A stretch of DNA of 64,000 bases from Promethearchaeota archaeon (lineage in GTDB: Archaea; Asgardarchaeota; Lokiarchaeia; Sigyniarchaeales; SOKP01): the NCBI GenBank assembly GCA_019058425.1, contig JAHPYZ010000011.1, positions 5,032 through 69,031 on the forward strand, in the 5' to 3' direction. The notes under the pieces were generated by a model, which saw nothing but the letters and a program-made list of their open reading frames with translations, was not told where the DNA came from and made no database searches. Shown here piece after piece: positions 5,874 through 62,906 of this stretch (the stretch's first letter is position 1; each line of letters starts with the position of its first letter). The translations under genes and the position numbers were made by a program.

Positions 5874-6437
5874 ATGTCTGAAGTTAAAGAAGATAAAGCT
5901 TTTCCCTTTATTGAGGGAGAAAATGTTTCTCTTTGTCCATTAAATATGGATCACATTAATCTCTATGCTAAATGGATGAACGATCCAAAAATACGTAAAT
6001 TTGAAAGGAATAAATTTCCCCAAACTGTTGAAGATGTGAAAAAATCTTTTGAGTCTAAAAATCAAGATGTAAAAGTAGAATTGTATTTTGAAATATGGCA
6101 CAAGAATGATAAGAAACCTATAGGATATATAGGATTTCCTCATATTCAGTGGTTTATACGAAATGCTTTCATATTTTTTCTAATTGGAGATACCAACTAT
6201 TGGGGACAAAACATTGCAACAGAAGCAGGAAAACTAGTAGTTAATTACGGTTTTAGTGAACTTAATCTACATAAAATAACAGCTCGAACAATTTCTACAA
6301 ATATGTCCTCTATAAGAGTAGCTGAGAAAATTGGATTTACACATGAAATAACTCTTAAGAAAGAAGTATACATAGATGGTAAACACGTTGATATTGTAGA
6401 GTATGCTCTTTTTAAAGAAGATTGGATGAAATCTTAA
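5874..6437 (+). CDS. GNAT N-acetyltransferase, RimJ/RimL family (copy 1 of 4)
   Basis: YWGQNIATEA acetyl-CoA motif A; NMSSIRVAEKIGF motif B. Confidence 0.9.
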   Translation: MSEVKEDKAFPFIEGENVSLCPLNMDHINLYAKWMNDPKIRKFERNKFPQTVEDVKKSFESKNQDVKVELYFEIWHKNDKKPIGYIGFPHIQWFIRNAFIFFLIGDTNYWGQNIATEAGKLVVNYGFSELNLHKITARTISTNMSSIRVAEKIGFTHEITLKKEVYIDGKHVDIVEYALFKEDWMKS

Positions 6438-6482
6438 TAATCATCAATAAACCAATTTGTTATTATATAAAAGGTAATCGAA

Positions 6483-7073
6483 ATGGCAGAAAAAGAAAAA
6501 TCTATTGATAAACATAATTCAGAAGCTTTTCCTTTTATAAGAGGCAAAATAATTGATCTATGTCCACAAAAATCTGAATATGTGAAATTATATATTAAAT
6601 GGAAAAATAACCCTAAAGTTCGTAAATATTCTCGAAATGTAGTACCCAGGACTAAAGAACAACAGAAAAAAAGATTCGAAGAAATAAGGGAAGGATTTAG
6701 AGATCATATCTCTTTAGATATATGGCATAAAAAAGATAAAAAGCTAATAGGTCAGTGTGGATTAGCATGGATTAATTGGGTCAGTGGATGGGCAAATGCG
6801 TTTCTTTTTATTGGTGAGCCTGAGTATTGGGGGAAAAATATCGCTACTGAAGCTACTGAATTACTTGTTGAATACGCTTTCAATGAATTAAATCTAAAGA
6901 AAATACAAGGTGGAGCAGCAATTGAAAATATAGGTTCATGGAGTGTTGCTGAAAAGGTTGGATTTAAATTTGAAGGAATAAGAAAACATTCAATGTATGT
7001 TGATGGAAAGTTCGTTGATGTCAAGGTACATAGTTTGCATAAGGAAGATTGGATAAAAAGTAAAAAAGACTAA
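6483..7073 (+). CDS. GNAT N-acetyltransferase, RimJ/RimL family (copy 2 of 4)
   Basis: YWGKNIATEA; NIGSWSVAEKVGFKFEG. Confidence 0.9.
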   Translation: MAEKEKSIDKHNSEAFPFIRGKIIDLCPQKSEYVKLYIKWKNNPKVRKYSRNVVPRTKEQQKKRFEEIREGFRDHISLDIWHKKDKKLIGQCGLAWINWVSGWANAFLFIGEPEYWGKNIATEATELLVEYAFNELNLKKIQGGAAIENIGSWSVAEKVGFKFEGIRKHSMYVDGKFVDVKVHSLHKEDWIKSKKD

Positions 7074-7139
7074 ACCAACTTTTTCAATATTTTACATTAT
7101 TACTAGCCAAAAATGAAAATAAAAAAAAATTGTAAAGAT

Positions 7140-7706
7140 ATGAAAGAAAACAAAGTAATTAATTCTGTTCCCTTCTTAGAAGGAAATATTGTTGACTTAT
7201 GTTCGATCAACTTAGAGCATGTAAATTTGTATAATAAGTGGGGCAATGATCCCAATGTTCGTATATACTCCAGAAACGTGATTCCTTGGAATTTAGAGGA
7301 AGTAAAAAAATGGCTCGAACAACAGAAAGAAGGTATAAAAACAAACGTTATATTCGAAATTTGGCACAGGAATGATAAGAAACCTATTGGAACCGCAGGA
7401 TTATCTGATATTAAGTGGTTTAATAGAAATGCTAATTTATATGTAGATATTGGAGAACCAGAATATTGGGGGCATAATATTGCTCCTGAAGTAAGTAAAT
7501 TGCTGATTGATTACGGGTTTGAAGAACTAAACTTACATAAAATTTATGTGGGGATTTATTCGCCTAATAAAAGATCTTTACGAGCAGCAGAAAAAATTGG
7601 CTTTAAGTACGAAGCTACACTTAGGGAACAGATCTATATTGCCGGAGAATACGTTGATGAAATAAAATTTGCTATTTTCAAGAAAGACTGGTTAAGCTCC
7701 AAATAA
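7140..7706 (+). CDS. GNAT N-acetyltransferase, RimJ/RimL family (copy 3 of 4); start 7140 or 7113
   Basis: YWGHNIAPEV; NKRSLRAAEKIGF; the ATG at 7140 aligns with the paralog N-termini. Confidence 0.88.
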   Translation: MKENKVINSVPFLEGNIVDLCSINLEHVNLYNKWGNDPNVRIYSRNVIPWNLEEVKKWLEQQKEGIKTNVIFEIWHRNDKKPIGTAGLSDIKWFNRNANLYVDIGEPEYWGHNIAPEVSKLLIDYGFEELNLHKIYVGIYSPNKRSLRAAEKIGFKYEATLREQIYIAGEYVDEIKFAIFKKDWLSSK

Positions 7707-7760
7707 TGTGTTAAATAAAGTTTTATTAAAAATATAGTTAATTAAGGTTTGATGAAATAT

Positions 7761-8336
7761 ATGGTAGAAAAAGAAGAAAAAATAGTTCCAGTTTTTATTG
7801 AGGGAAATGAGATAAGTCTTGCAGTCCAAGATTCAGATCACGTTGACTTATATGCAAAATGGATAAATAATCCAAAAGTTCGTGTATTTGCTCGATCGGA
7901 AACACCTATAAGAGTTGAAGATATTAAGAAATGGTTTGAACCTCGGAAAGGAAGAGTACCAAAATTTATAGTCTTTGATATTTGGCATAAAAAAGATAAA
8001 AAACCAATAGGTCAGTGTGGTTTATCATGGATTAATTGGGTCAATGGATGGGCAAATGCTTTTCTTTCTATTGGCGAGCCTGAGTATTGGGGGAAAAACA
8101 TCGCTACTGAAGCTACTGAAATGCTTGTTGAATATGCCTTCAATGAATTGAATCTTAATAAATTACAGGGTGGTGCTGCTGTTGAAAATATAGGTTCATG
8201 GAGTGTTGCTGAAAAAGTTGGATTTCAATTCGAAGGAATACGCAAAGATAGCATGTATGTTAACGGTAAATATCATAATGGCAAAACTTACCGTATCTTA
8301 AAAGAAGAATGGATGAAATATAAAGAAAATAAATAG
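7761..8336 (+). CDS. GNAT N-acetyltransferase, RimJ/RimL family (copy 4 of 4); start between 7749 and 7761
   Basis: YWGKNIATEA; NIGSWSVAEKVGFQFEG. Confidence 0.88.
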   Translation: MVEKEEKIVPVFIEGNEISLAVQDSDHVDLYAKWINNPKVRVFARSETPIRVEDIKKWFEPRKGRVPKFIVFDIWHKKDKKPIGQCGLSWINWVNGWANAFLSIGEPEYWGKNIATEATEMLVEYAFNELNLNKLQGGAAVENIGSWSVAEKVGFQFEGIRKDSMYVNGKYHNGKTYRILKEEWMKYKENK

Positions 8337-11159: not shown

Positions 11160-12533
11160 TCATATCTCTTCACGAAGTTTGATAATTTTTCTTTTTAGCT
11201 TCTTAATTCGAGAATCAGAAATATTATAAATTAGAAAACTCTCGAGAATTTTTAATGCTTTTTGATAATGCTGAATACTATTGATATAATCACCACTTTT
11301 TTCAGCGTTTTCTCCTGCTTTTAATGTAAAGTCTAACTCTATTTGTTTGACTTGTTTATCCAATTCTAACAGAATTTTTGAAATTCGATCAATTTGTGAT
11401 TTGAGTTTAAACTCTCTTGCCAAGAAAAGGGCTTTTTTATATTCTTTTTCTCCTACTTGATATGCTAAAGCTTTCTCAGCAGTTTTACCTTTCCTGATCA
11501 ATTCTTTAATAACATTAATTGCTGAATTCTCATCCATATCTTCCATTTGTTCTTTTAATTCTTCAATATCTGAGTCTGTAATAATCATCGATGATATTGG
11601 TTTGTATTTTTCAGCTTTTTCATCTTGAACTTCTTTGATTCTTTCCAGATTACTCACAGCTGCCTCTAGCTTAGTTGGTATAATAGTTTTATTCTCTACT
11701 AGCTGATATATCTGGTATAAAATAACATGTGAATCTAAGTTTACAATTTTTTTTACTCGATTTAGCAAATTATTTATAAAAAAGAAGGATTTCGAAACAA
11801 GTAATTCCTTAGCAATATTAAAAATTGCTTTTTGAATTTGATTTTGGTTGATTCCCTCCAAAATTTTAGGAGCAATTGATTGAGTTAAAATCATAGGGAA
11901 AACTAGCCTAATTTCAAATGAATCTACAATAAAATCAACCATATTTTTAAAATAAAGCATTCCAGCACTTCGAAAATTAATAAGTTCTTGACTGTAAGTG
12001 TCTTCAAATTCAGGGATGAAATGTAAGACTTGAGTTTTCATATTCTCAGAAGCTTTATTATCAAGCATCAAGCAGAGTCTAATAAACTCTCCATCTCTTA
12101 AGAGAATATTAAAATCTTGATATTGAAATTCATAAAAGTTTTGATCTCTTGTAGATTGTGAAGACTTATATGATTCTTTATGTGATTCAGAAAATCTAAT
12201 ATTTGCCTGAATGAATCCACTCAATAGATCTGCCTTTATTTCTTCTCCTGAAACAGGGTAGTTCAATAGTGTTAATCCTGATTCATTATCCATAACTATT
12301 ATATGTCTTATATTGAGAACATCCGAGAATTTTCGATAGATTATTTGTTGTTCCATCTTAATGCGACGGTCTTCTGATTCGATCTCAAAAACCTTAATCT
12401 CAGAATCCACTTCAAATCCAAGTTGTTTCAACTTATTTTTAACACACGCAAAACAATACTTTGGATATTTTACACATTTCTCCTTAATTTTTCCACAATT
12501 AAATCCCAAGTGGTCTATCTCAAAATAAACCAT
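11160..12533 (-). CDS. Asgard multidomain protein: Cys4 N-terminus, longin-like domain, wHTH-like segment, TPR/MIT-like helices
   Basis: Cx6Cx6CxxC; HIIVMDNESGLTLLNY...ADLLSGFIQA longin pattern; YINSIQHYQKAL TPR-like. Confidence 0.7.
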   Translation of the reverse strand: MVYFEIDHLGFNCGKIKEKCVKYPKYCFACVKNKLKQLGFEVDSEIKVFEIESEDRRIKMEQQIIYRKFSDVLNIRHIIVMDNESGLTLLNYPVSGEEIKADLLSGFIQANIRFSESHKESYKSSQSTRDQNFYEFQYQDFNILLRDGEFIRLCLMLDNKASENMKTQVLHFIPEFEDTYSQELINFRSAGMLYFKNMVDFIVDSFEIRLVFPMILTQSIAPKILEGINQNQIQKAIFNIAKELLVSKSFFFINNLLNRVKKIVNLDSHVILYQIYQLVENKTIIPTKLEAAVSNLERIKEVQDEKAEKYKPISSMIITDSDIEELKEQMEDMDENSAINVIKELIRKGKTAEKALAYQVGEKEYKKALFLAREFKLKSQIDRISKILLELDKQVKQIELDFTLKAGENAEKSGDYINSIQHYQKALKILESFLIYNISDSRIKKLKRKIIKLREEI

Positions 12534-12796
12534 AGAAAACTTCTATATCCATTTCTTTTAGGAATCAAAATATGATCAATATTCCTTATAACAATATTAC
12601 TTTGTACTTTTATTTGGTTTAACATAATGAAACAGGCATTTAAATTTTTAGAATAGGTATAGTTTGAAGGGAAATAATAAGAAGATAATGATTAGATTTT
12701 TAAGGTTAATATTTATCAACAAATAAAACTTTTTAGATCGTGAATTAAAGAAATAATCATAGAAACGTTTTTTAGTAAAAAATTAGAGGTTTTGTT

Positions 12797-14263
12797 TTGA
12801 AAGATTTTAAAATTGATGATGATTGGATTTTGAAACGAATTTCTAAACAGAGTAATAGTTTCAGTGAATGGATGAGTGGCTTAATTAAAGGTATAGAGAA
12901 AACACTAGAAGAAATTAATCCCGAAGCGCTTGATGAATTCAAAAAAGATGAAATGATTTTATCATTCCAAGGGTTGGACAAGGATTTAAGCGAAGCACAA
13001 AAAGAATTGGATAAGTTAGGATTTTTGGGAAAAGGTATTTCAAATTTCACAACGAAAATGTTTAGTAGGGTTAAAAAACCAATTGAGAAACATATTAAAA
13101 GATCTTTAAGAAATGTTGAGGGCTTAGATTTTGAATTAGATTTTATTACAGGTAAAAAAAAAGATTTATCTACTGCTCTTTATGATGTATCAAAAGAGAG
13201 AGGGATTGAATCTGAAGGATTACTCTATCTTATAAAAGCCCTACCAGACCTTGAGGCCTTTCTTTATAGTACCAGTGTAAGAAAATATTATCGGGATCAT
13301 ACTGAACATGCTCTTCGTGTAGCAGTTTTAGGAGATTTTCTTTTGGAACAAGATCTCGGACAAGGATCATTGGAAGGATTGATTTCTGAATTAACAGAAA
13401 TTGATAAGAAATTGCTAAAAGATAAATTCTGGTGGATTACGGGACTTATTCATGATATTGGTTATCCATTAGGAAAAATGACCACAGCAGTAAATTATTC
13501 CCTTGTGAACCAACTTTTAAAATGTTATCCCACTATTGATTTAGAATTTATTCCCTTTGAAATCAATTTAGGTTGGAAAGGTCAGCAAGAGGAATATCTT
13601 AAGATTTTGGAAGAAGACCTTTCAAAAGAAGCCCGTACATTAATAAGAAAAGGAGCTGGAATTAAAGATCAGGAATTACCCCCTCAAAAAACTCAGGTTT
13701 TCATAACTCAACCAGATGGGCATCCCGAATATCGTTATAAAGATCCAATTCAACTAGATCATGGAGTTATTTCTGCACTTTCTCTTCTTAAAGGGCTTGG
13801 ATCCCCTCAGGAAATTAAAAATAATGATGAATATAATGGATATATTCTAGTGGCTAAAGCAATAGCATTGCATAATTTTAAAGCTCAACTAAAAGATTAT
13901 GTTTTTGATGAGCAGCCTTTAGCATTTTTCTTAATGTTAATAGATGAATTACAAGAATGGGGACGACCGATACCAATTCAAATACGTGACACTTATTTTA
14001 CAACCGAATTGAAAAAAGTAACTCTATTAAACGATCTAATACTAAATTTGGATGATTTTACTTGGTTAATGCAGTTTAAAAACCAACAAGCTAAAGACTT
14101 AATGAATTTTAAATTCAAATTATTTTCAAAAGGCAAGAAGAAGGCATTTGGAAGGTTAATTAGTGGAGAAAGGTTCCCTAAAACTACGATTAATCTTCAA
14201 GATGTTGAATTTGCTGAAGAAAAGAAAGAAAAAATTGTAGCACAAGATACTATAGTAATTTGA
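12797..14263 (+). CDS. HD-superfamily metal-dependent phosphohydrolase with long helical N-terminus
   Basis: RDHTEH, LIHDIGYP, DHGVISA, IALHN and LIDELQEWGR motifs. Confidence 0.8.
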   Translation: MKDFKIDDDWILKRISKQSNSFSEWMSGLIKGIEKTLEEINPEALDEFKKDEMILSFQGLDKDLSEAQKELDKLGFLGKGISNFTTKMFSRVKKPIEKHIKRSLRNVEGLDFELDFITGKKKDLSTALYDVSKERGIESEGLLYLIKALPDLEAFLYSTSVRKYYRDHTEHALRVAVLGDFLLEQDLGQGSLEGLISELTEIDKKLLKDKFWWITGLIHDIGYPLGKMTTAVNYSLVNQLLKCYPTIDLEFIPFEINLGWKGQQEEYLKILEEDLSKEARTLIRKGAGIKDQELPPQKTQVFITQPDGHPEYRYKDPIQLDHGVISALSLLKGLGSPQEIKNNDEYNGYILVAKAIALHNFKAQLKDYVFDEQPLAFFLMLIDELQEWGRPIPIQIRDTYFTTELKKVTLLNDLILNLDDFTWLMQFKNQQAKDLMNFKFKLFSKGKKKAFGRLISGERFPKTTINLQDVEFAEEKKEKIVAQDTIVI

Positions 14264-14277
14264 GGTGATTCAAGATT

Positions 14278-14556
14278 ATGGAAGAACTAAAAGAAAATGG
14301 ATTAAAAATCTTTAATGCTCTATTTGAGCGAAAAAAAAGTGTTGAAATTGATGAAATCGAATACGACATAAAGAGATTTTCTAGTGGTGTAAGATATGTG
14401 GATCTTTTTGGATATCGTTATATCGAACAAAATCGTAATAAAAAATCGGAGTGGGGGAAAAAGGCTAGAGAAGGCCATCAAATAATGTGGATTATTAAGG
14501 GAAGACGATATATCGCACAAATTTTAGATGGACAATATAAAGATCTAAAGAAATAA
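14278..14556 (+). CDS. Small basic hypothetical protein
   Basis: GAGGTGA SD at the HD stop codon; ATG start; YIEQNRNKKSEWGKKAREGHQIMW. Confidence 0.8.
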   Translation: MEELKENGLKIFNALFERKKSVEIDEIEYDIKRFSSGVRYVDLFGYRYIEQNRNKKSEWGKKAREGHQIMWIIKGRRYIAQILDGQYKDLKK

Positions 14557-14602
14557 TCAAGAAAATTTGTTAAAAATAAAAAATAAGAAAAAAAATATTT
14601 TA

Positions 14603-14677
14603 TTAAAAATAAGGATTAAATCCAATAGCAGCTTCTATAATTATTACTTCCCTTGGGCTTAAGTTGTTTTTTTTCAA
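14603..14677 (-). CDS. Putative 24-aa micropeptide MKKNNLSPREVIIIEAAIGFNPYF (not in ORF track)
   Basis: TTG start 5 nt after AGGTGG (14683-14688, minus strand), the same SD and start codon as the 2228 gene; tandem TAA TAA stops followed by minus-strand T-tracts. Confidence 0.55.
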   Translation of the reverse strand: MKKNNLSPREVIIIEAAIGFNPYF

Positions 14678-14715
14678 TTTTTCCACCTTTTTTATGTTCG
14701 ATTTTTTTTATTTTT

Positions 14716-14800
14716 TTAAACGTTTGATTCTTAATAATAAAATAGAACATATCATATATAAATGTTTTGTTTTTTTATGATTTTTCAAACGTTCGAAAAA
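14716..14800. promoter_or_regulatory. Two palindromic operator-like sites in a divergent promoter region
   Basis: TTAAACGTTTGA at 14716-14727 and TTTTTCAAACGTTCGAAAAA at 14781-14800, the latter abutting a TATAAATA box at 14801. Confidence 0.55.
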
Positions 14801-14830
14801 TATAAATATTATAAAATATATGTATTATTT

Positions 14831-15466
14831 ATGAGTAAAGATAACATTGAAAAATCTATTCTAGATGTGTTAAAAAGTGATGTACGATTTCGTATATTCT
14901 CATTATTACACTTATATCCAGAATTGAGTTTTTCTGAAATTTCCAAAAAAATGAATAAAAGTAAATCAACTATACATCATCACCTAAAAGAGTTGATTGA
15001 TTATGACATTATTGAGCTCTCTCGTCAAGAAAAAGTAAGAGGAAACATTTTAGCTAAATACTATTCATTAAAGCCTGGATACCTTGAGAAGTTGAGTAAA
15101 ACAGATTCTGAAATTGATAAAGCTACTCCATCAACAGTGGAATTCTTTATAGCTTATCTGAATTTTAACATTAGAAATCTTGAAATTTATAAAAAATTTT
15201 TTGAAGTACTTGGAAAAAGGGAAGATGGACTTGAACAGTTGAAAGAAATGCTTAAAAAAGAAGAAAGTTTTAGTAGTATGCTCTTTCTTAGTGAGGAAAG
15301 ATATAAAAAAGTACGAGCTCTTTATTCGGATTTTACCCAAAAAATTAATGAAATTGAACGAGAAGAAAATGGGATTAATGGGGTTAAGAGAGAAAAGCCT
15401 TTTTATATATTTACTTTGGGAATGTCATTAAAACAAGTAATTGAAGGACTTAGCAAAGCTTCTTAA
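14831..15466 (+). CDS. ArsR/HTH_20-type winged-helix transcriptional regulator
   Basis: LKSDVRFRIFSLL...LSFSEISKKMNKSKSTIHHHLKEL...KYYSL; ATG 14831 follows a TATA box, so the ORF-track start at 14762 is likely too far upstream. Confidence 0.85.
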   Translation: MSKDNIEKSILDVLKSDVRFRIFSLLHLYPELSFSEISKKMNKSKSTIHHHLKELIDYDIIELSRQEKVRGNILAKYYSLKPGYLEKLSKTDSEIDKATPSTVEFFIAYLNFNIRNLEIYKKFFEVLGKREDGLEQLKEMLKKEESFSSMLFLSEERYKKVRALYSDFTQKINEIEREENGINGVKREKPFYIFTLGMSLKQVIEGLSKAS

Positions 15467-15618
15467 AGTGTATAAAAGTTAAAATCACTCTATAGAACAG
15501 TGGAATCCATCAAATTTGAAATTGGAAATTTGATCCAAAAATTGGACCCCATTTTATTTTAAATCTTTTCTATTCTTTTTTTGATTAAGTGAAAAATAAA
15601 ACAAAATTGTGATATAAT

Positions 15619-15732
15619 ATGGAAGTTAAAATAAGAATAGATACAATATATGGAACTTATGATATTAACAAGGTTAAGAGTAATCTAGATAAGAAATTTG
15701 CTCAAATAAACAAAGTACCAATAAATATATAA
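15619..15732 (+). CDS. 37-aa paralog of the 63-aa ORF with an in-frame 26-codon deletion
   Basis: MEVKIRIDTIYGTYDINKVKSNLDKKFAQINKVPINI aligns with both ends of 16025-16216. Confidence 0.45.
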   Translation: MEVKIRIDTIYGTYDINKVKSNLDKKFAQINKVPINI

Positions 15733-15766
15733 AAAATTCAAGCTTATATCTTTTCCATTTCTTAGT

Positions 15767-15792
15767 TGAGTATATTCGAAAGAATATACTCA
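15767..15792. terminator. Hairpin, 11-bp stem with GAAA loop
   Basis: TGAGTATATTC-GAAA-GAATATACTCA. Confidence 0.5.
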
Positions 15793-16024
15793 CTAGAACT
15801 TTAAATTCCCTTTAAACCTATCAAGAATTAATTCTAAATAGGATTTTTTTATAGATTCCAACCTTTCTTTTAATATCAAATAAACTTAAGAAATCAGCAT
15901 TGAACAGTGAAATCCACCAAATTTGAAAGGGGAGATTTGATCTAAAAATTGGACTCCATTTTACTTTAATTCTTTTCTTTTCTTTTTCTATTCAGTGAAA
16001 AATTAAATAGAATAGTGATATATT

Positions 16025-16216
16025 ATGGAAGCTAAAATAAGAATAAACACAAATTATTACGAATTTTTGGATTTAGTTAAAGATATATCCAAAAATTCCA
16101 AATCTATTCAAAACAGTCTAATGAAAAAAATATATGAAAATTATGATATAAACAAGGTCAAGCATAATCTAGATAGGCAAATTGCACTTCTAGATAAATT
16201 ACTGATAAATAAATAA
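16025..16216 (+). CDS. 63-aa hypothetical protein
   Basis: ATG start; frame, start and stop are conserved in the upstream duplicate. Confidence 0.6.
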   Translation: MEAKIRINTNYYEFLDLVKDISKNSKSIQNSLMKKIYENYDINKVKHNLDRQIALLDKLLINK

Positions 16217-16249
16217 AAAAATCAAGCTTAAATCTTTTCCATTTCCTAG

Positions 16250-16277
16250 GTGAGTATATTCTCTTGAATATACTCAC
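16250..16277. terminator. Hairpin, 12-bp stem, between convergent genes
   Basis: GTGAGTATATTC-TCTT-GAATATACTCAC. Confidence 0.55.
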
Positions 16278-16291
16278 TAGCACTTTAAATT

Positions 16292-16885
16292 TTATTTTAT
16301 CTTGTCAAAAATTAATTCTAGGTATGATTTTCGTATAGATTCTTCCCTTCTAATACCTAATAAACCTAAGAAATCGAATAGAATTTCTTTAGAATCTTCA
16401 AGTTTTTCCGAAGAATGTAATAAACATTCTACTTCTATAAAATGTTGATCTAATATTGGTAAATAATCAATCAAAGCTTCTATCTGATAATTTTTAAACT
16501 CAAATTCATATAAATCTCTTTCCTTTTTGACCGTAAGAACTTCTTGAAAACCTAATTCTTTCAATAAAAACTTCATTGTCTCAGTATCTTCAATCTTAAT
16601 ATCTAATTCTTTACGAGTCTTTGTCGAACTGTCTAATTTTTTACCTTTATATGTTATATAATGATTAATATTGTGTTTAATTATTTGATTATTTTTGTTA
16701 AATTCAATAGATTTTCTCACTCTTAAAGCTTCATCTGTTTCTTCAAAATTTCTTAATCCTTTTGGCATATTAAAATAAGTATCTTCATGTTGTAAAGATA
16801 TTTTATATACACCATTATTTTCCTCGAACTTTTCTCTAATAGCGGATGGATCTGAGATTCGGACTTTTATTTCTACTTCAATCAT
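16292..16885 (-). CDS. cyaB: CYTH-family protein (class IV adenylate cyclase-like/triphosphatase)
   Basis: EVEIK (ExExK), DTYFN, ALRVR, YKG, KKER, FIEVE, RKSYLEL. Confidence 0.9.
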   Translation of the reverse strand: MIEVEIKVRISDPSAIREKFEENNGVYKISLQHEDTYFNMPKGLRNFEETDEALRVRKSIEFNKNNQIIKHNINHYITYKGKKLDSSTKTRKELDIKIEDTETMKFLLKELGFQEVLTVKKERDLYEFEFKNYQIEALIDYLPILDQHFIEVECLLHSSEKLEDSKEILFDFLGLLGIRREESIRKSYLELIFDKIK

Positions 16886-17027
16886 TCTAATTTTTTCCTT
16901 ACTGATAACAATTATAATTTACTATTTTTTATTAGTATTAATGGATTGAATTCGAGTTGATCTTTTTATTTCAGCATCATTTAGCATCGTTAAAGAGCTT
17001 GCAGAAAAATATGGTTATCTTCCCTAT

Positions 17028-17933
17028 ATGATAGATAGATACATCCAATTTTTAGGAATAGATGACACTGTACAATTATTAGAAGCAAACGAAAAGCCAT
17101 TAATACCCTCAATACGTACTAATACTCTTAAAATATCTGCATCAGAATTGAAAAGAAGACTCGAAAAGAAAGGAAATGAGTTAGAACCAATTGAATGGAT
17201 TCCTTATGGATTTGAAGTTAAAAAAACATCTATAAATTTAGGATCTTCCCATGAGTTTTTACAGGGTTATTATTACTTACAAAATGTTGCTTCGATGCTT
17301 TCAGCTATCATACTCGATCCTAAACCGGATGATGTTGTACTCGATATGTGTGCTGCTCCCGGAAGTAAATCCACTCATTTAGCTCAACTTATGGGAAATA
17401 AAGGGAGGCTTGTTTTAATTGATAAAAATAGAAACCGAATACCTGCCTTAGAAGTCAATTTAAGGAGAATGGGTGTTCTAAATTCAATTATATTAAATAT
17501 GGATGCTATTAATTTATCGGATCTAAATATTAAATCTAACAAAATTCTGTTAGATGCTCCATGCACCGGAGAAGGATTAATAAGACAAGATCCTAGTAGA
17601 AAGAAAAGTAGGATGGTGAAAGAACTTGAAAAAATGTCTTCAATTCAAAGGAAGTTATTGAAAGCTGGATTAAATACATTAGATTCTAGAGGAAAACTTT
17701 TATATTGTACCTGCTCTATAGCTCCTGAAGAAAATGAGCTGGTTGTAAATGATGTATTAAATCAGGTAAAAAATTTCGAAATAGTAGAAATTCCTCGAAA
17801 TTATGGTATGAAAGGATTGACAGAAGTTTTTGGAGTTTCAATGTTAGATAGTCTAAAGTTCTCACAACGTTTATATCCTCATCTTCATGATACTATAGGC
17901 TTTTATTTCTGTCTTATAAAAAATATTAACTAA
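17028..17933 (+). CDS. RsmB/NOP2/NSUN RNA m5C methyltransferase; true N-terminus probably extends upstream
   Basis: LDMCAAPGSKS, ILLDAPCTGEG, LYCTCS, PEENE. Confidence 0.93.
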   Translation: MIDRYIQFLGIDDTVQLLEANEKPLIPSIRTNTLKISASELKRRLEKKGNELEPIEWIPYGFEVKKTSINLGSSHEFLQGYYYLQNVASMLSAIILDPKPDDVVLDMCAAPGSKSTHLAQLMGNKGRLVLIDKNRNRIPALEVNLRRMGVLNSIILNMDAINLSDLNIKSNKILLDAPCTGEGLIRQDPSRKKSRMVKELEKMSSIQRKLLKAGLNTLDSRGKLLYCTCSIAPEENELVVNDVLNQVKNFEIVEIPRNYGMKGLTEVFGVSMLDSLKFSQRLYPHLHDTIGFYFCLIKNIN

Positions 17934-18236
17934 AATTATAGTGGAATTTTGGTCTATATGAATTTATAGGGAAATTCATCTTGTATTTTATTATTTTATT
18001 ATCTTAAAAGGAATCTAATAATTTCATTGATTTTTTCACAAGAAGTAGGAATTTCTCCAGAATTACATATTTTTAGCGAAGAGTTATATCTAAATTTATT
18101 AAGAATTAATCTTTATAGAATTCTTGACATAAGTATAAAAGATACCCCTATTAGGAAATTAGGAAAAATTAAAATTCTGAAAGAATCTGAATTAAATTCA
18201 GATTTCGAAGATATAATAAAGTTGGTTATCTCTATC

Positions 18237-18977
18237 ATGAAACCTCAGATTTTATCTAGAAACATTGGATTAGAGCATCCAAGTGTAAGGAAAGTAATAG
18301 AGATAGCTGAAGAGATTATGAGCAAAAACAAGTTATTAAATGTGGAAAATCTCTATAATTTGGCAAAAAAACGATTGAATTTATCGAGAAATGGCCTTCT
18401 ATTTATAATAAAATTTTTGATTAATAAAAAGATTCTAATTGAGGGATCAAAGTTTTCTAAGGAAACTGTTCTTTTAAATGGTATTAGAAGAAATATTTAT
18501 AACTATATTAAAGTAAATCCCGGTGTACATTTCTCTTTATTAAGAAAAAAGGCATTATCTGTCGAATCTGGTAGTTCCGGGCAATTAATATGGCACTTAG
18601 AGATGTTAATAAAATTTAATTATATCAATAAAACTAGTGTAGGGAATTACACCATTTTTTTTCCTATTGAGATGGAGATTGAATTTGGAATTATAACTTT
18701 TCTATTACGAGATAGGATTAATTTAAAAATTATCGAGTTTATAGCTACACATAAATCAATCAAAAAATCAGAAATTTATAAATTAATAGACGAAAAAAGA
18801 GATCTCGTTAATTATCGTATAACCAATCTAATAAACTATGATTTGATCTATTTTGAAAATGAAAACACTAAGGAGCTCTGTATAAATCCTACCAAACAAA
18901 GTGATATTTTTGATATTATCAATATTTTTAGAAAAAAATTGAATAAAACTGAATTAAAAAAAATTAATAAAAGATAA
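18237..18977 (+). CDS. Multi-winged-helix putative transcription regulator (N-terminal wHTH plus two COG3398-like HTHs), module 1
   Basis: RRNIYNYIKVNPGVHFSLLR...SSGQLIWHLEML; full-length paralog of 60853-61536, whose N-terminus aligns to the ATG at 18237. Confidence 0.8.
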   Translation: MKPQILSRNIGLEHPSVRKVIEIAEEIMSKNKLLNVENLYNLAKKRLNLSRNGLLFIIKFLINKKILIEGSKFSKETVLLNGIRRNIYNYIKVNPGVHFSLLRKKALSVESGSSGQLIWHLEMLIKFNYINKTSVGNYTIFFPIEMEIEFGIITFLLRDRINLKIIEFIATHKSIKKSEIYKLIDEKRDLVNYRITNLINYDLIYFENENTKELCINPTKQSDIFDIINIFRKKLNKTELKKINKR

Positions 18978-18982
18978 GAAAA

Positions 18983-20299
18983 ATGGTATTAAATTGGACA
19001 CCTGAAATCATTGTAGAAATATTCACAAGTTCGATTATTTTAATAGCTACACTATTAATGTTCATTACACCGAGAACAAAGAATATTAAATCATTGTCGT
19101 TTATCAGAGTAGCTCTCTTTTTCATGGGTATGCTTTTTGCGCTAGATTTGCTAGCAAATCTTTATTTGAACCAATTTCTTTCCCGAATTTGTGGACTTAT
19201 GCTATTTCCTAGTGCAGTGTTCTTTGCAATTGGTATAAACTATACAATTAAAGAAACATTTAATTCCCCATTCTTGCTTATAGCTGTGGGTTTAGGTATT
19301 TTATACACTTACTTAGCATTTCAACCTGGGGCAGTTAGATTTGAAATTGAGGGAGATTATTTAAATTTGAATTGGATTGGCTTATACGAATTAGGGGGTT
19401 TAATTTTCATATTCTTTGTTGGGAGTGCTTCATTTTATTGGGGATTAAAAACTTGGTTAAATGCTCCATTTTTAATTAGAAGAGAAGCGTCCATTTTTTT
19501 CCTTGGTACTTTAATAAATGGCCCCTTAACTCTACTTATTTACACCTTTTATTATTGGAATCCAATTTTTATTTTGTTTGCCTACGCAACTACTGGTTTA
19601 GGAAACTTATTTGTTTGTCTTGGTATATTAATGGAGCCTAAACTCTTATATATTTTACCATTTACAGTTAATAGGATTGTTGTAAGAGATCGAAATGGTA
19701 ATGCATTATATAATTATGATTGGTCTCTTTCTAGTTTAAGGGAATCAGTTTTTACTGGATTTCTAAATGCAGTACAACTTATGAGCGATGAAGTAATAAA
19801 TATGGGAGGGTTGTTGGATATAAAATTAGAAGAAGGGATATTAACATTATATGAATCGGATTTAATCTCAGTTGGATTATTATCGTCCAAATCTTCGAAA
19901 CTATTAAGAGAATGTGTTGTGGGGTTCTCAATGGAATTCCAAATTATTTTTGAAAAGGAACTTAAGCAATCATGTGTAAATCAAGCGAAATATGAGTCTG
20001 CATATGATTTGATAGAGAAATACTTCTCCAACTTTCCTTATAAAATGATTACTAGCAAAAAACAATCTCTGATTTTATCAGGTGAATATACAAAAATACC
20101 TTTAGAGTTGGAAAGTAATTTTAAAGAGATTTTCCAAAATGAGATGGAATATAATTTCATTAAAATTGAACTTCAAAAGTCTCCTTTAAACCAAAGCTCA
20201 GAGTTTTTTTCATTATATAACGATTTAGAAAATGAAGCGCGAGAAATGGTTGAAGATAATTCAAAATCTCTGGAATATAAACTCCATGATGAACTTTAA
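18983..20299 (+). CDS. 7-TM membrane protein fused to a cytoplasmic longin-like domain
   Basis: Seven hydrophobic helices in residues ~7-217, then LYILPFTVNRIVVRDRNGNALY...VFTGFLNAVQLMSDEV longin pattern. Confidence 0.75.
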   Translation: MVLNWTPEIIVEIFTSSIILIATLLMFITPRTKNIKSLSFIRVALFFMGMLFALDLLANLYLNQFLSRICGLMLFPSAVFFAIGINYTIKETFNSPFLLIAVGLGILYTYLAFQPGAVRFEIEGDYLNLNWIGLYELGGLIFIFFVGSASFYWGLKTWLNAPFLIRREASIFFLGTLINGPLTLLIYTFYYWNPIFILFAYATTGLGNLFVCLGILMEPKLLYILPFTVNRIVVRDRNGNALYNYDWSLSSLRESVFTGFLNAVQLMSDEVINMGGLLDIKLEEGILTLYESDLISVGLLSSKSSKLLRECVVGFSMEFQIIFEKELKQSCVNQAKYESAYDLIEKYFSNFPYKMITSKKQSLILSGEYTKIPLELESNFKEIFQNEMEYNFIKIELQKSPLNQSSEFFSLYNDLENEAREMVEDNSKSLEYKLHDEL

Positions 20300-20548
20300 A
20301 GTTATAGATTGAAAAAATCAATGATTAGAATTATATATTAATACTATAGGCAATTCAAAACTAATATAAAAAATGGAAAATTGACAATTATGTAAAAGAA
20401 AAAGTTATTATATATTTATATACTAAAATAGATTACATATTATTCGTAATTTACGTTTAGTAAAGGAATCCTCTTCAATATATTGAACCCTTAAAAGAAG
20501 AAGTTTATTTATCTAAATTAAATAAATATAAAAAAAGGCGTAAGAATA

Positions 20549-21847
20549 TTGTTAAATTGGACTACTGAAGTAATTGTTGATTTCATAGTAGGAACAATTA
20601 TTTTCTTAGCCTTAATAATAACCCATTTTGAGCCTAAAATCAAAAAACTCAGATCAATCCTCTATATTAGGATAGCAATATTTTTTATGATGCTAGTTTT
20701 TTACATCGATGCTTTGAGTATTCTTTATTTAAATATCACTTTGTCACGATTCAATGCATTTAACATTGCCTTCACCTCTATTTTTCTCTTAATGGGAGTT
20801 AATTACATCTCGAGACAAACCTTCAATTCAATCTTTTTAATTATTAATTGTTGTTTAGGAACATTAATGGTTTATTTAGCTTTTCAAGCAGATTCAATTA
20901 AACTTGTAACTGAATTTGGATACTTAAATATAAAGTGGATTAGAGCTCTTGCATTAATGGATATTATTATATCTCTTAACCTAGTAGTAGTATTACTATA
21001 TTGGGGTTTTAAAACTTGGGTAAATTCGCCTTTTTTAATTAAAAAAGAGAGTTTAATATTCTTAATAGGGATACTCTTTATAGGACCAATCTATCTCATT
21101 TTCTATATACTCTACTATTTAAATATCCTATTTGTTACAATTGGGGATCTTTTAATGGGTCTGGGAACTTTAATATTTTGTTTCGTTATAGGAAGAGAGC
21201 CAAAGTTATTGTATATACTCCCTTTTACAATTCATAGAATTGTAGTAAAAGATAGAAATGGAAATCCTTTATATGATCATGATTGGTCTCAATCAAATAT
21301 AAATGAAACGATATTTACTGGATTTTTAAACGCAGTTCAACTTATGAGTGAAGATGTAATGCAAATTGGAGGTTTATTCGATATAAATTTGGAAGATGGT
21401 ATTCTTATTTTACGAGAATCTGCACAGATCACAGTCGGTCTTGTCTCATCGAAATCCTCAAAATTGTTGAAAGATTCAGTAGTTAAATTTACAGCAGATT
21501 TTGAAAAAAAATTTGAACGTGAATTAAAAAAGTCAATTAAGGATATGACTCAATATGAAGGGGCATATGAACTTATAGAAAAATACTTTTCAAATTTTCC
21601 ATATAAGACTATTAAAAGTAAAAAACAACCCATATTTCTTACAGAGAGATATACTAAAATTCCTTTAGAATTAGAGAATAAACTTCGTACAATTTTTAAT
21701 GATGAAGAAGAATATGAAGCTATTAAAGCTGAATTAATAAAATCTCCCCTTTCTTTTATTTCAGAGTTTATCAGACTCCATGATCAATTAAAAGATGAAG
21801 TAAAAGGGATTTCATCTGAAGATATTAAATATCTAAATGAGAATTAA
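20549..21847 (+). CDS. 7-TM plus longin-like protein, tandem paralog
   Basis: Collinear with 18983-20299: WGFKTW, EPKLLYILPF, IFTGFLNAVQLMSE, YTKIPLELE. Confidence 0.75.
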   Translation: MLNWTTEVIVDFIVGTIIFLALIITHFEPKIKKLRSILYIRIAIFFMMLVFYIDALSILYLNITLSRFNAFNIAFTSIFLLMGVNYISRQTFNSIFLIINCCLGTLMVYLAFQADSIKLVTEFGYLNIKWIRALALMDIIISLNLVVVLLYWGFKTWVNSPFLIKKESLIFLIGILFIGPIYLIFYILYYLNILFVTIGDLLMGLGTLIFCFVIGREPKLLYILPFTIHRIVVKDRNGNPLYDHDWSQSNINETIFTGFLNAVQLMSEDVMQIGGLFDINLEDGILILRESAQITVGLVSSKSSKLLKDSVVKFTADFEKKFERELKKSIKDMTQYEGAYELIEKYFSNFPYKTIKSKKQPIFLTERYTKIPLELENKLRTIFNDEEEYEAIKAELIKSPLSFISEFIRLHDQLKDEVKGISSEDIKYLNEN

Positions 21848-24042: not shown

Positions 24043-24756
24043 ATGGGTATTAGAAAGATTGAAGATGAGATTGACCTAAAAGAAGCTATGAAAAAGAAAG
24101 CTGCCGAATTGAAAATGAAGGACATGCAAGCAAAAGCCTCAGTTGAAAAATTCACTAAAGATAAACTAAGAGACCTTGCTAAGAAACATGGTGTTTTATT
24201 AGCTTTAACTCCCGAGTTAAGAAAAGAAGTAAAAGAATTGCAGAAAAAGTATAATATTCCCTCTTCAAAAATTATTACTGACCAAATAACAGAGCATGAT
24301 GTTTTAAGAAAGTTCTCAAAAATAGATCACCAAAAATTAGGAATGTTAGCATACCAAAGAGTTTTGATGAGTAAAGAGGAAACTGGAGGAATTATCCCGT
24401 TATCAGAAGTCTATGAATTAGTTAATACAGGAATTTTAAATGGTAACATTGAAGTAAAAGATGTAGAAAAATCACTACGACTGCTGAAAAAAACAAAAGT
24501 TATTGATGATATAACCGAATTGGAATCAGGATCAATTATTATAAGATTTTTTCCCATTGAGTATACGAGTGATGAAGCCAAGGTTGTTGATTTAGCTAAA
24601 GAGAAAGGTGTTCTTACTTTAGAAGATGTTTGTACTAATTTAGAATGGTCACAAGATCGAGCTTTAAGATCTTTAGAATCACTCGAAAGAAGTGGTATTG
24701 CTAAATTTAGGGAGAACATCTTAACTGGGAAACAATGGTATTTCCCCTCATTGTGA
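24043..24756 (+). CDS. ESCRT-II Vps22/Vps36-like (EAP30 domain) protein
   Basis: MGIRKI N-terminus; TGGIIPLSEVY...DVEKSLRLL; WSQDRALRSLESL; QWYFPSL tandem wHTH; adjacent to vps25 and vps4. Confidence 0.85.
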   Translation: MGIRKIEDEIDLKEAMKKKAAELKMKDMQAKASVEKFTKDKLRDLAKKHGVLLALTPELRKEVKELQKKYNIPSSKIITDQITEHDVLRKFSKIDHQKLGMLAYQRVLMSKEETGGIIPLSEVYELVNTGILNGNIEVKDVEKSLRLLKKTKVIDDITELESGSIIIRFFPIEYTSDEAKVVDLAKEKGVLTLEDVCTNLEWSQDRALRSLESLERSGIAKFRENILTGKQWYFPSL

Positions 24757-24771
24757 GGAAAATTATTAAAC

Positions 24772-25665
24772 TTATTCTAACTTAATTTTAAACGCTAATT
24801 TTCCATCATCCAACTTTAAGATTTTAGCTTTTCGATTCTTAGCTAAAATCTTGAAAATCTCTTCCAGATCTTCAAGTGGAAGCGAGCTAAAATCTTCTTG
24901 TTTTGCTTCTCTTAATTCATAGATCATGATTGGCTCAATTTTTCCATTCTCATAAGCCCATTTCCATATTTCATCAGACCATACTTCAAGAGTTTTCCAG
25001 TATACTCTCAAACTTTCTTTCTTTTTTGAAAGCCATTTTGCTTGGTTCTGACTTATTAGTTCTTCAGAAATTTCTTTTATGTATTGCTCCCTTTTAGTAA
25101 AATTCATGAATGGTTTATGAGTTGTTAACTCTCTGGTGTAGATTATATGAAGAATAGCAAATCTAGCATAATCAAAAAGAACTTTTGCCCATTCTGTTTT
25201 CCACGAAATATAATCATTTTTGTTTTTGTTTTTATCAGGCATATCATACATGAACTTCTTTCTTTCCTCTTCGAGCCAAGGATATGCTTGCAACAAATTT
25301 TCATAAGCGGTTAGTTTCTTTTCGATTAGACCTTTTTCTCCAATAATTTCTTCTTCAAGGGTTTGTAACTCTGATTCAATTTGATCAGCATGCTTTTGAT
25401 AAACTTTAGTGTCTATCTCCCCTAGCTTGGAGGACAAAATATCTTCAAGTTTATCAAATTGTTCTTCAATAAAATCTAACTCTGTGGCTTTTATTTCATC
25501 TTCCTTAATGATATGCTTTTGTGTAGCTTCTATTTCCAATTGCTCTTTTTCTTGTTTTAATATCTTTAACCTAGCCAGTTCTTTCCTTAATTCCTCTAAC
25601 TCTTTTTCTGCTTTTTCTTTAACTTCCTTTGGAACTTCAGTTGATCTTTCTCTTTGTCTTTCCAT
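24772..25665 (-). CDS. vps25: ESCRT-II Vps25-like protein with N-terminal coiled coil
   Basis: SWKTEWAKVLFDY, VYWKTLEVWSDEIWKWA, MIYELRE; ESCRT context. Confidence 0.82.
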   Translation of the reverse strand: MERQRERSTEVPKEVKEKAEKELEELRKELARLKILKQEKEQLEIEATQKHIIKEDEIKATELDFIEEQFDKLEDILSSKLGEIDTKVYQKHADQIESELQTLEEEIIGEKGLIEKKLTAYENLLQAYPWLEEERKKFMYDMPDKNKNKNDYISWKTEWAKVLFDYARFAILHIIYTRELTTHKPFMNFTKREQYIKEISEELISQNQAKWLSKKKESLRVYWKTLEVWSDEIWKWAYENGKIEPIMIYELREAKQEDFSSLPLEDLEEIFKILAKNRKAKILKLDDGKLAFKIKLE

Positions 25666-25682
25666 ATTAATCGTTTACTTTT

Positions 25683-26894: not shown

Positions 26895-27082
26895 AATAAC
26901 TTTATAAAAACCATTTTATTATTTGTTTTTAATCTAATTTAACAATTAGTAATATTAATAATTTTATCCGCATATATCAAATTTACTCTTTAACCTAATG
27001 AGATTAATGATTGGTCTCCAAAAAATTAAATACTCATCATAGCATTTATATATTAAATAATTACTAATTAGATTTGATAAAA

Positions 27083-27721: not shown

Positions 27722-27923
27722 ATTTTTTTTTGTAAATCACTTATTTATTATACTTTTAGTATAAGTATGGCAAGATTGGGTTCTCCTTTTAATATTTAAT
27801 CAATTTCGATTTATATTAGTAATAAAAAAAAATCACTATTTATGTTAAAAAATCATACTTTAGATTAAACTTAAAAATATAACAAATAATTATAGATCTA
27901 ACTATAAAAATAGTGTTAATAGC

Positions 27924-60852: not shown

Positions 60853-61536
60853 ATGAAATTTAAAAATGTTGTTGGACCGTTATCATTGGAAAATCCTAAT
60901 GTTCAAAAAATAATTGAAATTGCGAAAGAATTAATTAAAAAAAATAAGGTTTTGAAAGTAAAAAAACTCTATAATATAGCAATTAGATCTTTAGATATTT
61001 CTTCAGGAGACATACTGGATATTATCCAATTTTTAAACAATAATAAAATACTTATTGATGGTTCAAAACATACAAGAGATACGGTATTATTGAATCTATA
61101 TAGGAAAAAGATCTATAATGTGATAGAGAGTTTTAATGGTGCTACATTCTCTTTTTTAAGAGAGATGGTTTTTACAAATAATTCTGGAAGTGCAGGACAA
61201 CTAATTTGGCATTTAAAGATGCTATTAAAGTTCAAACATATAAAAAAACTTAAAGTTGGAAATTATTCTTTATTTCTTCCCTTAGATCTAGAAGATGATT
61301 TTGGAAAATTGTGTTTTTTTATGAAAGATAATCTTAATAGAAACATTATTAGACTATTTATAAATAATGATACGATTAAAAAGCCAAATGTATATAAGAA
61401 AATTAACTTTAAAAGAGAAAATGTTAATTACCGATTAAAAATATTGATGGAACATCAGATTTTAGTCTATAAAGATGAATCCACAAAGGAGATTTGTATT
61501 TCAAAAAGGATGAAAGAATTTCTTTTAAAAAATTAA
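60853..61536 (+). CDS. Multi-winged-helix putative transcription regulator, module 2
   Basis: Paralog of 18237-18977: KILIDGSK..RDTVLLN, GSAGQLIWHLKML, VGNYSLFLP, VNYRL. Confidence 0.82.
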   Translation: MKFKNVVGPLSLENPNVQKIIEIAKELIKKNKVLKVKKLYNIAIRSLDISSGDILDIIQFLNNNKILIDGSKHTRDTVLLNLYRKKIYNVIESFNGATFSFLREMVFTNNSGSAGQLIWHLKMLLKFKHIKKLKVGNYSLFLPLDLEDDFGKLCFFMKDNLNRNIIRLFINNDTIKKPNVYKKINFKRENVNYRLKILMEHQILVYKDESTKEICISKRMKEFLLKN

Positions 61537-61595: not shown

Positions 61596-62906
61596 ATGAA
61601 CTTATATATTATTTTGGAGCTTGTTTCTTTAATTTCTATAACAATAATCTTTCTGATAATTACAATCGCAATACAAGTATCTAAAGTTATGAAAAGATTT
61701 CCACTGTTATTTTATTTAAGGTTAACATCATGGTTTTTAGTCCTATATTTTATAACCAATATTATCTCTATTGTTTTAGAAAATGGAGCTTTTGCTCGTA
61801 TTCATATTATGCTTGTATTTCCATTTACATTCTTTTTTATTCTATTTTTTAATAATATGTTAAAAGAATCATATTATACTTTTGGTTTTATTGTATCTTG
61901 TTGTTTAGGTTTCTTACTTATTTTTTTGGGAACTCAGCCTAACGCTGTCAAGCGTATAACAGAACTAGGAGTTGAAATTTATGTACCTAATGGACTCTTT
62001 AATATTGTAGATAATATATTTTATCTATTATTTATTTCGTATTTTCTCTTTTGGGGGATTAAAACATGGACTATTAGTCCGTTTTATTTAAAAAAGAAAT
62101 CTTTATTATGTTTTATAGGAACAATAATATTTGCTGGAGGTTCAATATTTCATTTACTTTATTATTTTAATCCAATTTTTAATATTTTCATGCATCTATT
62201 AAATTTGATCAGTATATTACTTATAACAATAGTGATCATGAAGGAATTTAAGGTTCTCTACGTTTTACCTTATACAGTTTATAGAATCTCAGTAAGAGAC
62301 AATAATGGTAATCCTCTCTATGATCATGATTGGACAGATATGAATATAACCGAAACTGTTTTTTCAGGTTTCCTAAATGCTATTGAAATTATGAGTGAAG
62401 AAGTAATGCATGTGGGGGGTATACTCGATATAAATCTAAATGAAGGTATTCTTCTAGTGACCAGATGCGAACATATAACTGTAGGTTTACTTGCATCTAA
62501 GGCGTCCAAATTACTAAGAGATTGTGTAAATAATTTTACAATTGATTTTCAAAATAAATTTATAAGGCTTCTCAAAAAATCTTGTATAGATATGAAAGAA
62601 TACCGTTCTGCCTACGAGTTTATAAATAAATACTTTTCAATCATTCCATATAACAATATTAAAAATAAAAATCAGCTTATGACATTATCATATGAATATC
62701 ACGAATTACCAAAACAGCTTGAAGATAATTTTAAAAATATTTTTGGAGATAAGGATGAATATAAAAATGTTTTAAATGAATTAATTAAAACTCCCTGTTC
62801 AAAACCTTCGGAGTTTTTTGATCTCTATGACGAATTACAATTTGAAATCAATGAATTGGAATTAAAAAAATCAAAAGAACAAGAAGAAAAGAAATATTTA
62901 GAATAA
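61596..62906 (+). CDS. 7-TM plus longin-like protein, module 2
   Basis: Paralog of 18983 and 20549: WGIKTW, LYVLPYTVYRISVRDNNGNPLYDHDW, VFSGFLNA. Confidence 0.75.
   Translation: MNLYIILELVSLISITIIFLIITIAIQVSKVMKRFPLLFYLRLTSWFLVLYFITNIISIVLENGAFARIHIMLVFPFTFFFILFFNNMLKESYYTFGFIVSCCLGFLLIFLGTQPNAVKRITELGVEIYVPNGLFNIVDNIFYLLFISYFLFWGIKTWTISPFYLKKKSLLCFIGTIIFAGGSIFHLLYYFNPIFNIFMHLLNLISILLITIVIMKEFKVLYVLPYTVYRISVRDNNGNPLYDHDWTDMNITETVFSGFLNAIEIMSEEVMHVGGILDINLNEGILLVTRCEHITVGLLASKASKLLRDCVNNFTIDFQNKFIRLLKKSCIDMKEYRSAYEFINKYFSIIPYNNIKNKNQLMTLSYEYHELPKQLEDNFKNIFGDKDEYKNVLNELIKTPCSKPSEFFDLYDELQFEINELELKKSKEQEEKKYLE

Follow-up and report, generated by a model that had tools for sequence, protein, structure and literature searches.

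Asgard archaea encode many eukaryote-like longin proteins. A window of 64,000 nucleotides (the whole stretch of DNA that was analysed, from one contig of a Promethearchaeota archaeon genome) encodes a protein, P0001, whose longin-like domain is directly followed by a small helical unit. An earlier sequence-only reading had aligned this unit by eye with the first domain (D1) of regulators encoded in the same window, and proposed that D1 is a longin-docking domain. We were able to locate both peptides quoted there (P0001 residues 231-285, and residues 14-68 of the regulator starting at 60853), and membrane helix prediction was negative for P0001, in line with its description as a soluble protein. 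At stake is whether one module recruits both longin proteins and gene regulators to membrane proteins. The unit in question is small and testable: it is a 56-residue domain that occurs both in longin proteins and in predicted transcription regulators, and each of its two candidate partners could be produced as a fragment of peptide size. Table 1 lists the features discussed below.

Table 1. Parts of P0001 and related regulator and receptor genes, in window coordinates
Feature	Position	Strand	Evidence or remark
P0001 gene, 457-aa soluble protein	11160..12533	(-)	single ORF; no membrane helix predicted
Cys4 unit, residues 1-52, Cx6Cx6Cx2C	12378..12533	(-)	four conserved Cys
Helix 53-74	12312..12377	(-)	model
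Longin domain, residues 75-212	11898..12311	(-)	structure superposition
Post-longin strand and short helix, residues 213-230	11844..11897	(-)	model; 7-TM receptor alignment ends here
D1, residues 231-286, wingless winged-helix-like (alpha-beta-alpha-alpha-beta)	11676..11843	(-)	HHalign, model
Spacer, residues 287-334, partly low confidence	11532..11675	(-)	model, HHalign
Two three-helix MIT-like units, residues 335-457	11163..11531	(-)	superposition, Pfam, repeat analysis
D1 of regulator 18027-18977	18270..18446	(+)	D1 profile E 4.5e-26 (profile includes this regulator)
7-TM receptor, longin 225-351, then own helical tail in place of D1	18983..20299	(+)	
Second 7-TM longin receptor	20549..21847	(+)	
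D1 of regulator 60853-61536, source of the regulator peptide quoted in the sequence-only reading	60892..61059	(+)	D1 profile
Third 7-TM longin receptor (gene partner of regulator 60853)	61596..62906	(+)	

P0001 has 402 homologues at E<=0.001 (7995 candidates scored), which are mostly named, where a name is given, as hypothetical proteins of Promethearchaeota or Lokiarchaeota. When 151 genomes of the class were searched with a profile, near-full-length matches (E<=1e-80, a threshold chosen by reading the result table) came from 103 of the 126 genomes that belong to the same family and from none of the 24 outside it, where there were weaker matches only. A full-length paralogue is found on contig C105 of the same genome, tail to tail with the gene of a single-pass longin-D1 surface protein (C105:21965-26981), and a further gene of this kind lies 6 kb beyond that pair. 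Within 1.5 kb of 30 P0001 orthologues, a nucleotidyltransferase recurs as a neighbour (22), as does an HD-domain protein (13). In eight same-genus genomes, the P0001 orthologue and a regulator gene share a contig and are 3-5 kb apart (window 11160-21847 here), which is probably inherited gene order. Elsewhere in the window, four related tandem genes (5874-8336) resemble RimJ/RimL-type GNAT acetyltransferases by eye. The model of the whole protein (pLDDT 76, pTM 0.52) contains, in order, the Cys4 unit, a long helix, the longin domain, the alpha-beta-alpha-alpha-beta unit, a low-confidence spacer and a helical end.

The regulators consist of three domains, D1, D2 and D3. Using HHalign, the P0001-family segment (residues 226-292) matches D1 in a 72-row regulator alignment made without P0001 with P=96.3 and E=1.9e-9 over 56 ungapped columns (30% identity), whereas the same segment against D2 and D3 gives P=0.6 and 5.5, and no profile similarity was found between P0001 D1 and the HVO_0163-type HTH of D2/D3 (P 0.2-6.6). 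PF24266 (HVO_0163-type) is found in the 18027 regulator, whose true start is probably the ATG at 18237; several of its orthologues are about 240 aa long. A D1 profile searched against the 7231 ORFs of the genome matches 12 proteins: P0001 (1.1e-6) together with its paralogue (1.8e-4), seven regulators, one of which is frameshifted, another two longin proteins and an unrelated protein with a weak score; no ordinary ArsR/MarR protein was matched among these ORFs. Because the match is specific both against D2/D3 and within the genome, D1 is a distinct family and the by-eye alignment was right. Judged by profile comparison, the winged helix that follows the longin and D1 of the regulators belong to a single family, which has two different fusion partners. 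A soluble longin-D1 protein that has neither the Cys4 nor the MIT-like part is also encoded in the genome (C67:30407-31100, minus strand), and its frame stays open far upstream of the first ATG.

The D1 model has a three-helix core and a small sheet, as in a winged helix, and the post-longin strand may complete this sheet in the model. Weak sequence matches (E 0.2-0.5) point to the C-terminal domains of cullin, RPC6 and Teb2, which we take to be winged helices. According to the consensus lines, D1 of every class has conserved hydrophobic positions that look exposed.

The N-terminal Cx6Cx6CxxC pattern noted from the sequence is indeed present, and its cysteines (C13, C20, C27 and C30) are invariant in all 47 aligned P0001 homologues; in a wider set, four cysteines are found in 40 of 40 pattern-matching rows, and 2 rows have no pattern match. 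Pfam, solved-structure and Atlas searches with the Cys4 unit gave no family. From the cysteine pattern, the unit is likely a metal site, most simply a structural Zn site, and the spacing of the first cysteine, which varies among the homologues, fits a tolerant structural site. We also considered a basic membrane-binding finger at the N-terminus, which is unsupported (the median net charge of residues 1-45 is +2). The end of helix 53-74 corresponds to the end of the post-anchor helix in single-pass relatives (HHalign P=90, 14 columns), and D71 is almost invariant (121 rows). The longin domain of P0001 is far more similar to those of single-pass surface proteins (E 1e-33) than to those of 7-TM receptors (2e-10). 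The sequence-only reading had the Cys4 unit take the place of the 7-TM input; since the longin is closer to the single-pass proteins, the Cys4 unit instead occupies the slot of a single membrane helix plus ectodomain.

An invariant Cys4 unit in one chain with a winged-helix-like unit common to predicted regulators could suggest that P0001 is a one-component transcription factor, with an N-terminal Zn or Fe-S sensor that controls a DNA-binding winged helix via the longin domain, and the accessible text on NPRL2/3 proposes that winged helices there bind DNA, RNA or protein (PMC3747258). We consider this very unlikely for P0001, which lacks the HVO_0163-type D2 and D3 (D1 is unrelated to both). 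The wing hairpin after helix 3 is absent from the D1 model, with a lone short strand in its place, the third helix begins with apolar residues, and the first-cysteine spacing varies as in a tolerant structural site.

Superposition confirmed the longin fold that had been noticed from the sequence (Z 10-11). The P0001 longin superposes on longins of AP mu/sigma, VAMP7, TRAPP and Lokiarchaea at Z 9-11, including AP-4 mu (Z 11.0, rmsd 2.8, 117 aligned) and the Loki longin 8yqg (Z 10.6, rmsd 3.5, 131 aligned), and its secondary structure is that of a longin, with a five-stranded sheet, a helix 1 that follows the first hairpin and a pair of helices at the C-terminal end. The genome encodes 57 longin proteins. 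Two soluble proteins in the window (45792-46592 and 49880-50770) have longin or roadblock-like halves and no Pfam match; a longin profile matches the former.

Folded with 121 sequences, residues 60-292 reached pLDDT 89.6 and pTM 0.83. The latter exceeds the ceiling of about 0.7 that we estimated, from the definition of pTM, for a longin and a D1 that move freely, so a fixed arrangement is predicted, with the two domains of P0001 packed as one rigid unit in the model. Mean-field coupling over 256 longin-D1 rows (effective number 119) placed 6 longin-to-D1 pairs among the top 34, a very noisy result. The 7-TM receptor can be aligned with P0001 (P=98) across the longin domain as far as the proline that immediately precedes D1, beyond which the two differ; this puts the split point where the sequence-only reading had it.

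The longin-D1 fusion is not special to P0001. A search with residues 60-292 against 1.84 billion representatives found 491 clusters at E<=0.001, and the large majority of the best 150 of these 491 are long and have a membrane helix that precedes the longin domain by about 40 residues. As far as these sequences tell, the fusion is the usual inner end of many single-pass surface proteins, and P0001, which is soluble, is related to the inner part of such Asgard proteins, with the Cys4 unit replacing the anchor. Eight single-pass longin surface proteins are encoded in the same genome; a broader D1 profile finds D1 in three of them (E<0.001), and D1 in the other five is seen by eye only. Most longin-D1 surface proteins among the best 150 end at D1 and have no tail of the kind described next.

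Seven D1 regulators are encoded in the same genome. Two adjoin a longin receptor, and four adjoin longin-less membrane proteins that end in a common helical tail of 55 residues. The seventh contains membrane helices itself and has neither a tail nor a longin neighbour. Pfam, solved-structure and Atlas searches found no family for D1 or for this tail. We extended the comparison to a regulator sample made up of this genome plus 113 loci (33 loci and 80 regions picked from 150 of 315 matches; 60 of the 80 have query coverage that includes D1, and 20 do not). Among the 92 D1 regulators in the sample, 45 have a tail neighbour (one gene, L026 = L031, was entered twice in both the 92 and the 45) and 29 have a longin neighbour, which is a 7-TM longin receptor for 26 of them and some other longin protein for 3; 1 has only its own longin, and 17 have neither neighbour. 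At the thresholds used, 0 of 26 D1-less regulators have a tail or longin neighbour, and 22 of the 26 have membrane helices of their own. For a few rows scored as having none or as D1-less (L071, L115 and L116), divergent longin-like membrane proteins are seen by eye as neighbours. The sampled genomes are kin, mostly of one family, so these association counts are not independent and carry no attached statistic.

The longin-docking model, in which the regulator's D1 sits on the receptor longin as it does in the fused P0001, can be read against these numbers. The rigid longin-D1 model, the end of the receptor homology just before D1, and the 26 regulators beside 7-TM longin receptors (with the 3 beside other longin proteins and the few divergent ones seen by eye) all fit it. 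So do three proteins in two other genomes in which a single chain begins with a regulator and ends with a longin. These (L031 3726-5993 and 12648-14846; L032 1264-3540) are 732-758 aa long, with a whole D1-D2-D3 regulator before a middle part that looks by eye like an adaptin appendage and a helical bundle; two of the three adjoin a tail-bearing membrane gene. As a general rule, however, the model is not supported: only 29 of the 92 sampled regulators (2 of 7 in this genome) adjoin a longin, against 45 with longin-less tail neighbours, and 5 of the 7 in this genome lack a longin neighbour. D1 of P0001 is also no closer to the regulators of the 7-TM class (P=77 for the D1 of 7-TM-module regulators, a less diverse alignment, and P=96 for that of tail-class regulators). 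The Rosetta-stone argument stands insofar as longin and D1 are fused in some proteins and split into adjacent genes in others; the inference from fusion is weakened by the promiscuity of longin domains, with 57 longin proteins in one genome, and by D1 being found more often beside tails. We therefore regard longin docking as somewhat unlikely overall; it may hold for the 7-TM subset of regulators.

D1 and the tail form a Rosetta-stone pair of their own, being fused in some proteins and split into neighbouring genes elsewhere. A tail profile built without the single-pass fused proteins matches directly after the D1 position in 17 of the 150 best representatives (9 at E<=0.01), and the fused (cis) tail and the neighbour-encoded (trans) tail are homologous at P=93 and E=3.4e-7, a score that 0 of 60 shuffles reach. 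One subfamily, which includes C2:21354 of this genome, has a membrane helix, longin, D1, tail and two MIT-like units, and P0001 is similar to the D1-tail subfamily in the longin (E 1e-33), D1 (9e-13) and the MIT-like end (2e-11). The helical tail of the 7-TM receptors, by comparison, showed no significant homology to the tail domain (P=0.3-0.4, with 12 of 60 shuffles scoring equally); the two share the same register by eye only, and bridging them via divergent longin partners was unsuccessful.

Since the tail profile was trained on the loci counted above, we ran the converse test from the tail alone. The tail alignment matches 49 of 151 genomes of the phylum, and 60 regions outside the own genus were taken from 150 of 160 tail matches (some apparent orthologous repeats were skipped). 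Out of 62 tail ORFs in other genera, 32 adjoin a D1+D2 regulator, 3 adjoin a regulator that has D2 but in which D1 is weak or was not detected, and 27 adjoin neither; no longin protein was detected beside any of the 62. BLAST clustering of the 72 tail proteins that adjoin D1 regulators, based on their non-tail parts, gives 18 clusters, of which 9 have at least 2 members (the count of 18 is possibly inflated by truncated ORFs). This suggests that D1 and tail stay paired while the sensor part changes. Over 70 D1-tail pairs, mutual information reached a top z of 7.35 as compared to a shuffled 95th percentile of 6.4, uncorrected for kinship. Complex prediction of a regulator D1 with the neighbour's tail (39-row alignments each) scored 0.02 against a mark of 0.32, a result that weighs neither way.

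Tails are also found away from regulators. Small soluble proteins of 75-96 aa have little beyond the tail domain and mostly no regulator neighbour (C70:6048-6275 in this genome, and L149, L155, L163, L170, L179, L182 and L189); these could possibly be decoys for D1. Giant surface proteins from other Asgard families (L190, L192 and L199-L203) end in one or two tail-like units, and no D1 neighbour was detected for them. In this genome, a D1-D2-D3 regulator at C96:53277-53938, downstream of a tail-bearing partner, is frameshifted right after D1.

A different account of these associations is that D1 is a shuffled self-association module, forming homodimers or heterodimers with other D1s, with the tail and longin being partners of the whole proteins and not of D1. 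The conserved, exposed-looking hydrophobic positions in D1 of all classes would suit such a module, D1 ends many proteins that have neither a tail nor regulator domains, and such domains are widely shuffled in Asgard archaea according to the accessible text of 10.1101/2020.10.19.343400. We find this quite unlikely: it leaves unexplained both the in-chain order of D1 and tail, and the absence of D1 from membrane-anchored regulators as against its presence in soluble regulators with membrane neighbours.

The spacer of P0001 sits where the membrane subfamily has its tail domain, and is shorter. Its pLDDT is below 50 at residues 300-317, and HHalign found no recognisable homology between it and the tail domain (P=4.4 and 0.45). 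A degenerate tail at residues 296-349 was considered and rejected: an ungapped profile ranks the segment in the top 0.4% of background, but the profile-profile comparison is negative, and the segment also overlaps the first MIT-like helix.

The C-terminus had been described as TPR; it consists instead of two three-helix units that look more like MIT domains. Tandem 34-residue TPR repeats are absent from P0001 (one 23-residue stretch fits consensus TPRs), and the internal repeat period is about 58 residues. There are many MIT domains among the structure matches, the best being archaeal Vps4 MIT 2w2u (rmsd 1.3 over 67 residues) at Z 12.1, which is below the Z of 13 attainable by chance for helical bundles; the tandem units match the calpain-7 tandem MIT at Z 10.5 but with an rmsd of 10.9. 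Pfam MIT matches 42 of 47 P0001-family members at E<=0.1 (best 5.5e-6) and TPR_2 matches 27 of 47, with P0001 itself below the gathering cut-offs of both MIT (16.1 vs 30 bits) and TPR_2. The C-terminal profile also picks up the N-terminus of the genome's own Vps4 (E 0.013). An ESCRT-like cluster with a Rab-like GTPase is found 12 kb from P0001 (window 24043-28475), comprising what we take to be two winged-helix ESCRT-II-like proteins, Vps4 with an N-terminal MIT, an ESCRT-III-like protein and the Rab-like GTPase. No ESCRT-like or Rab-like gene was found within 1.5 kb of P0001 orthologues.

The reading that we prefer, with a probability of about 0.5, is that P0001 is a cytoplasmic adaptor, a soluble relative of the single-pass surface family, and that its D1 serves to dock proteins and not to bind DNA. 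Because D1 travels more often with the tail than with longin, it is likely a module for docking to membrane partners. In the regulators, D1 would dock the DNA-binding D2-D3 onto the adjacent membrane protein, usually via the 55-residue tail, so that the docked regulator would stay membrane-bound and be released only by a signal; membrane helices of its own would let a regulator dispense with D1. In the longin proteins, D1 is predicted to pack on the longin and may leave another face free. Having neither a tail nor an anchor of its own, P0001 would reach tails in trans as a soluble adaptor; no gene link between P0001 and a tail was found within 1.5 kb of 30 orthologues. More tentatively, P0001 might bring to such a site its longin, as a platform on which a small GTPase or a second longin could bind, and its MIT-like bundles, which could bind ESCRT-III-type peptides.

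A wider proposal is that D1 and the tail are a plug-and-socket that wires unrelated Lokiarchaeal membrane sensors to outputs without kinases, with P0001 sharing the regulators' sockets, including the orphan tails of the giant surface proteins, and supplying them with its longin and MIT-like parts. This is unlikely on present evidence; if it is true, the same surface signal could lead to gene expression in one case and, in another, to membrane remodelling by small GTPases and ESCRT-III.

We compared P0001 with related systems. A search of the accessible literature found no description of D1, the tail or the P0001 architecture; the asCOG tables that go with 10.1101/2020.10.19.343400 and PMC10936438 may list such architectures, and the accessible text of 10.64898/2026.10.28.762692 has nothing on the P0001 family. 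Asgard longin fusions and domain shuffling have been published (10.1101/2020.10.19.343400; PMC10936438), and the multidomain proteins described in the available part of PMC10936438 combine adaptin appendage, Vps28-C, longin and HTH/TPR domains. This pool of domains is common with P0001, and the regulator-longin fusions of L031 and L032 fit it by eye; a Cys4-longin-wH-MIT protein, D1 and the tail are absent from the text of section 6 of that paper.

The order of a longin followed by a winged helix recalls NPRL2/NPRL3 (Npr2/Npr3 of GATOR1), in which, in the part of PMC3747258 that is available, an N-terminal longin precedes one or more winged-helix domains. NPRL2/NPRL3 have two or more winged-helix repeats after the longin, whereas P0001 has a single wingless unit. 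GAP longins of the NPRL2/FLCN/SMCR8 type have a GP motif before strand 2 (available text of PMC12290439), which is absent from all 121 rows of the P0001 longin alignment (0/121). As a candidate for the arginine finger that such longins have beside the GP motif, only R152 is conserved (89%). NPRL2/3 are not among the structure matches listed for P0001, which does not exclude a relationship; the superpositions cover either the longin or D1 of P0001, and none covers a longin plus a winged helix.

With the longins of AP/COPI subunits, VAMP7/Sec22, TRAPP, Mon1-Ccz1 and Loki 8yqg, P0001 shares the fold (Z 9-11 over about 115-130 residues) at 5-15% identity. P0001 differs in having its longin fused to D1, which none of these alignments extends over. 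With the MIT domains of archaeal Vps4 (2w2u), MITD1 and calpain-7 (tandem MIT), it shares the three-helix bundle. Unlike the MIT of Vps4, the MIT-like units of P0001 are C-terminal and come without an ATPase, and their binding of ESCRT-III is putative.

For the regulators, the closest parallels are systems in which a regulator is sequestered at the membrane, such as SdpI/SdpR, Mlc/PtsG and membrane anti-sigma factors. By analogy, D1 regulators are likely similar, each being soluble and having its gene next to that of the membrane protein presumed to hold it; the likeness is one of arrangement, and no sequence relationship is claimed. A difference from SdpI/SdpR-type systems is that the putative docking unit, D1, also forms part of longin surface proteins and of P0001.
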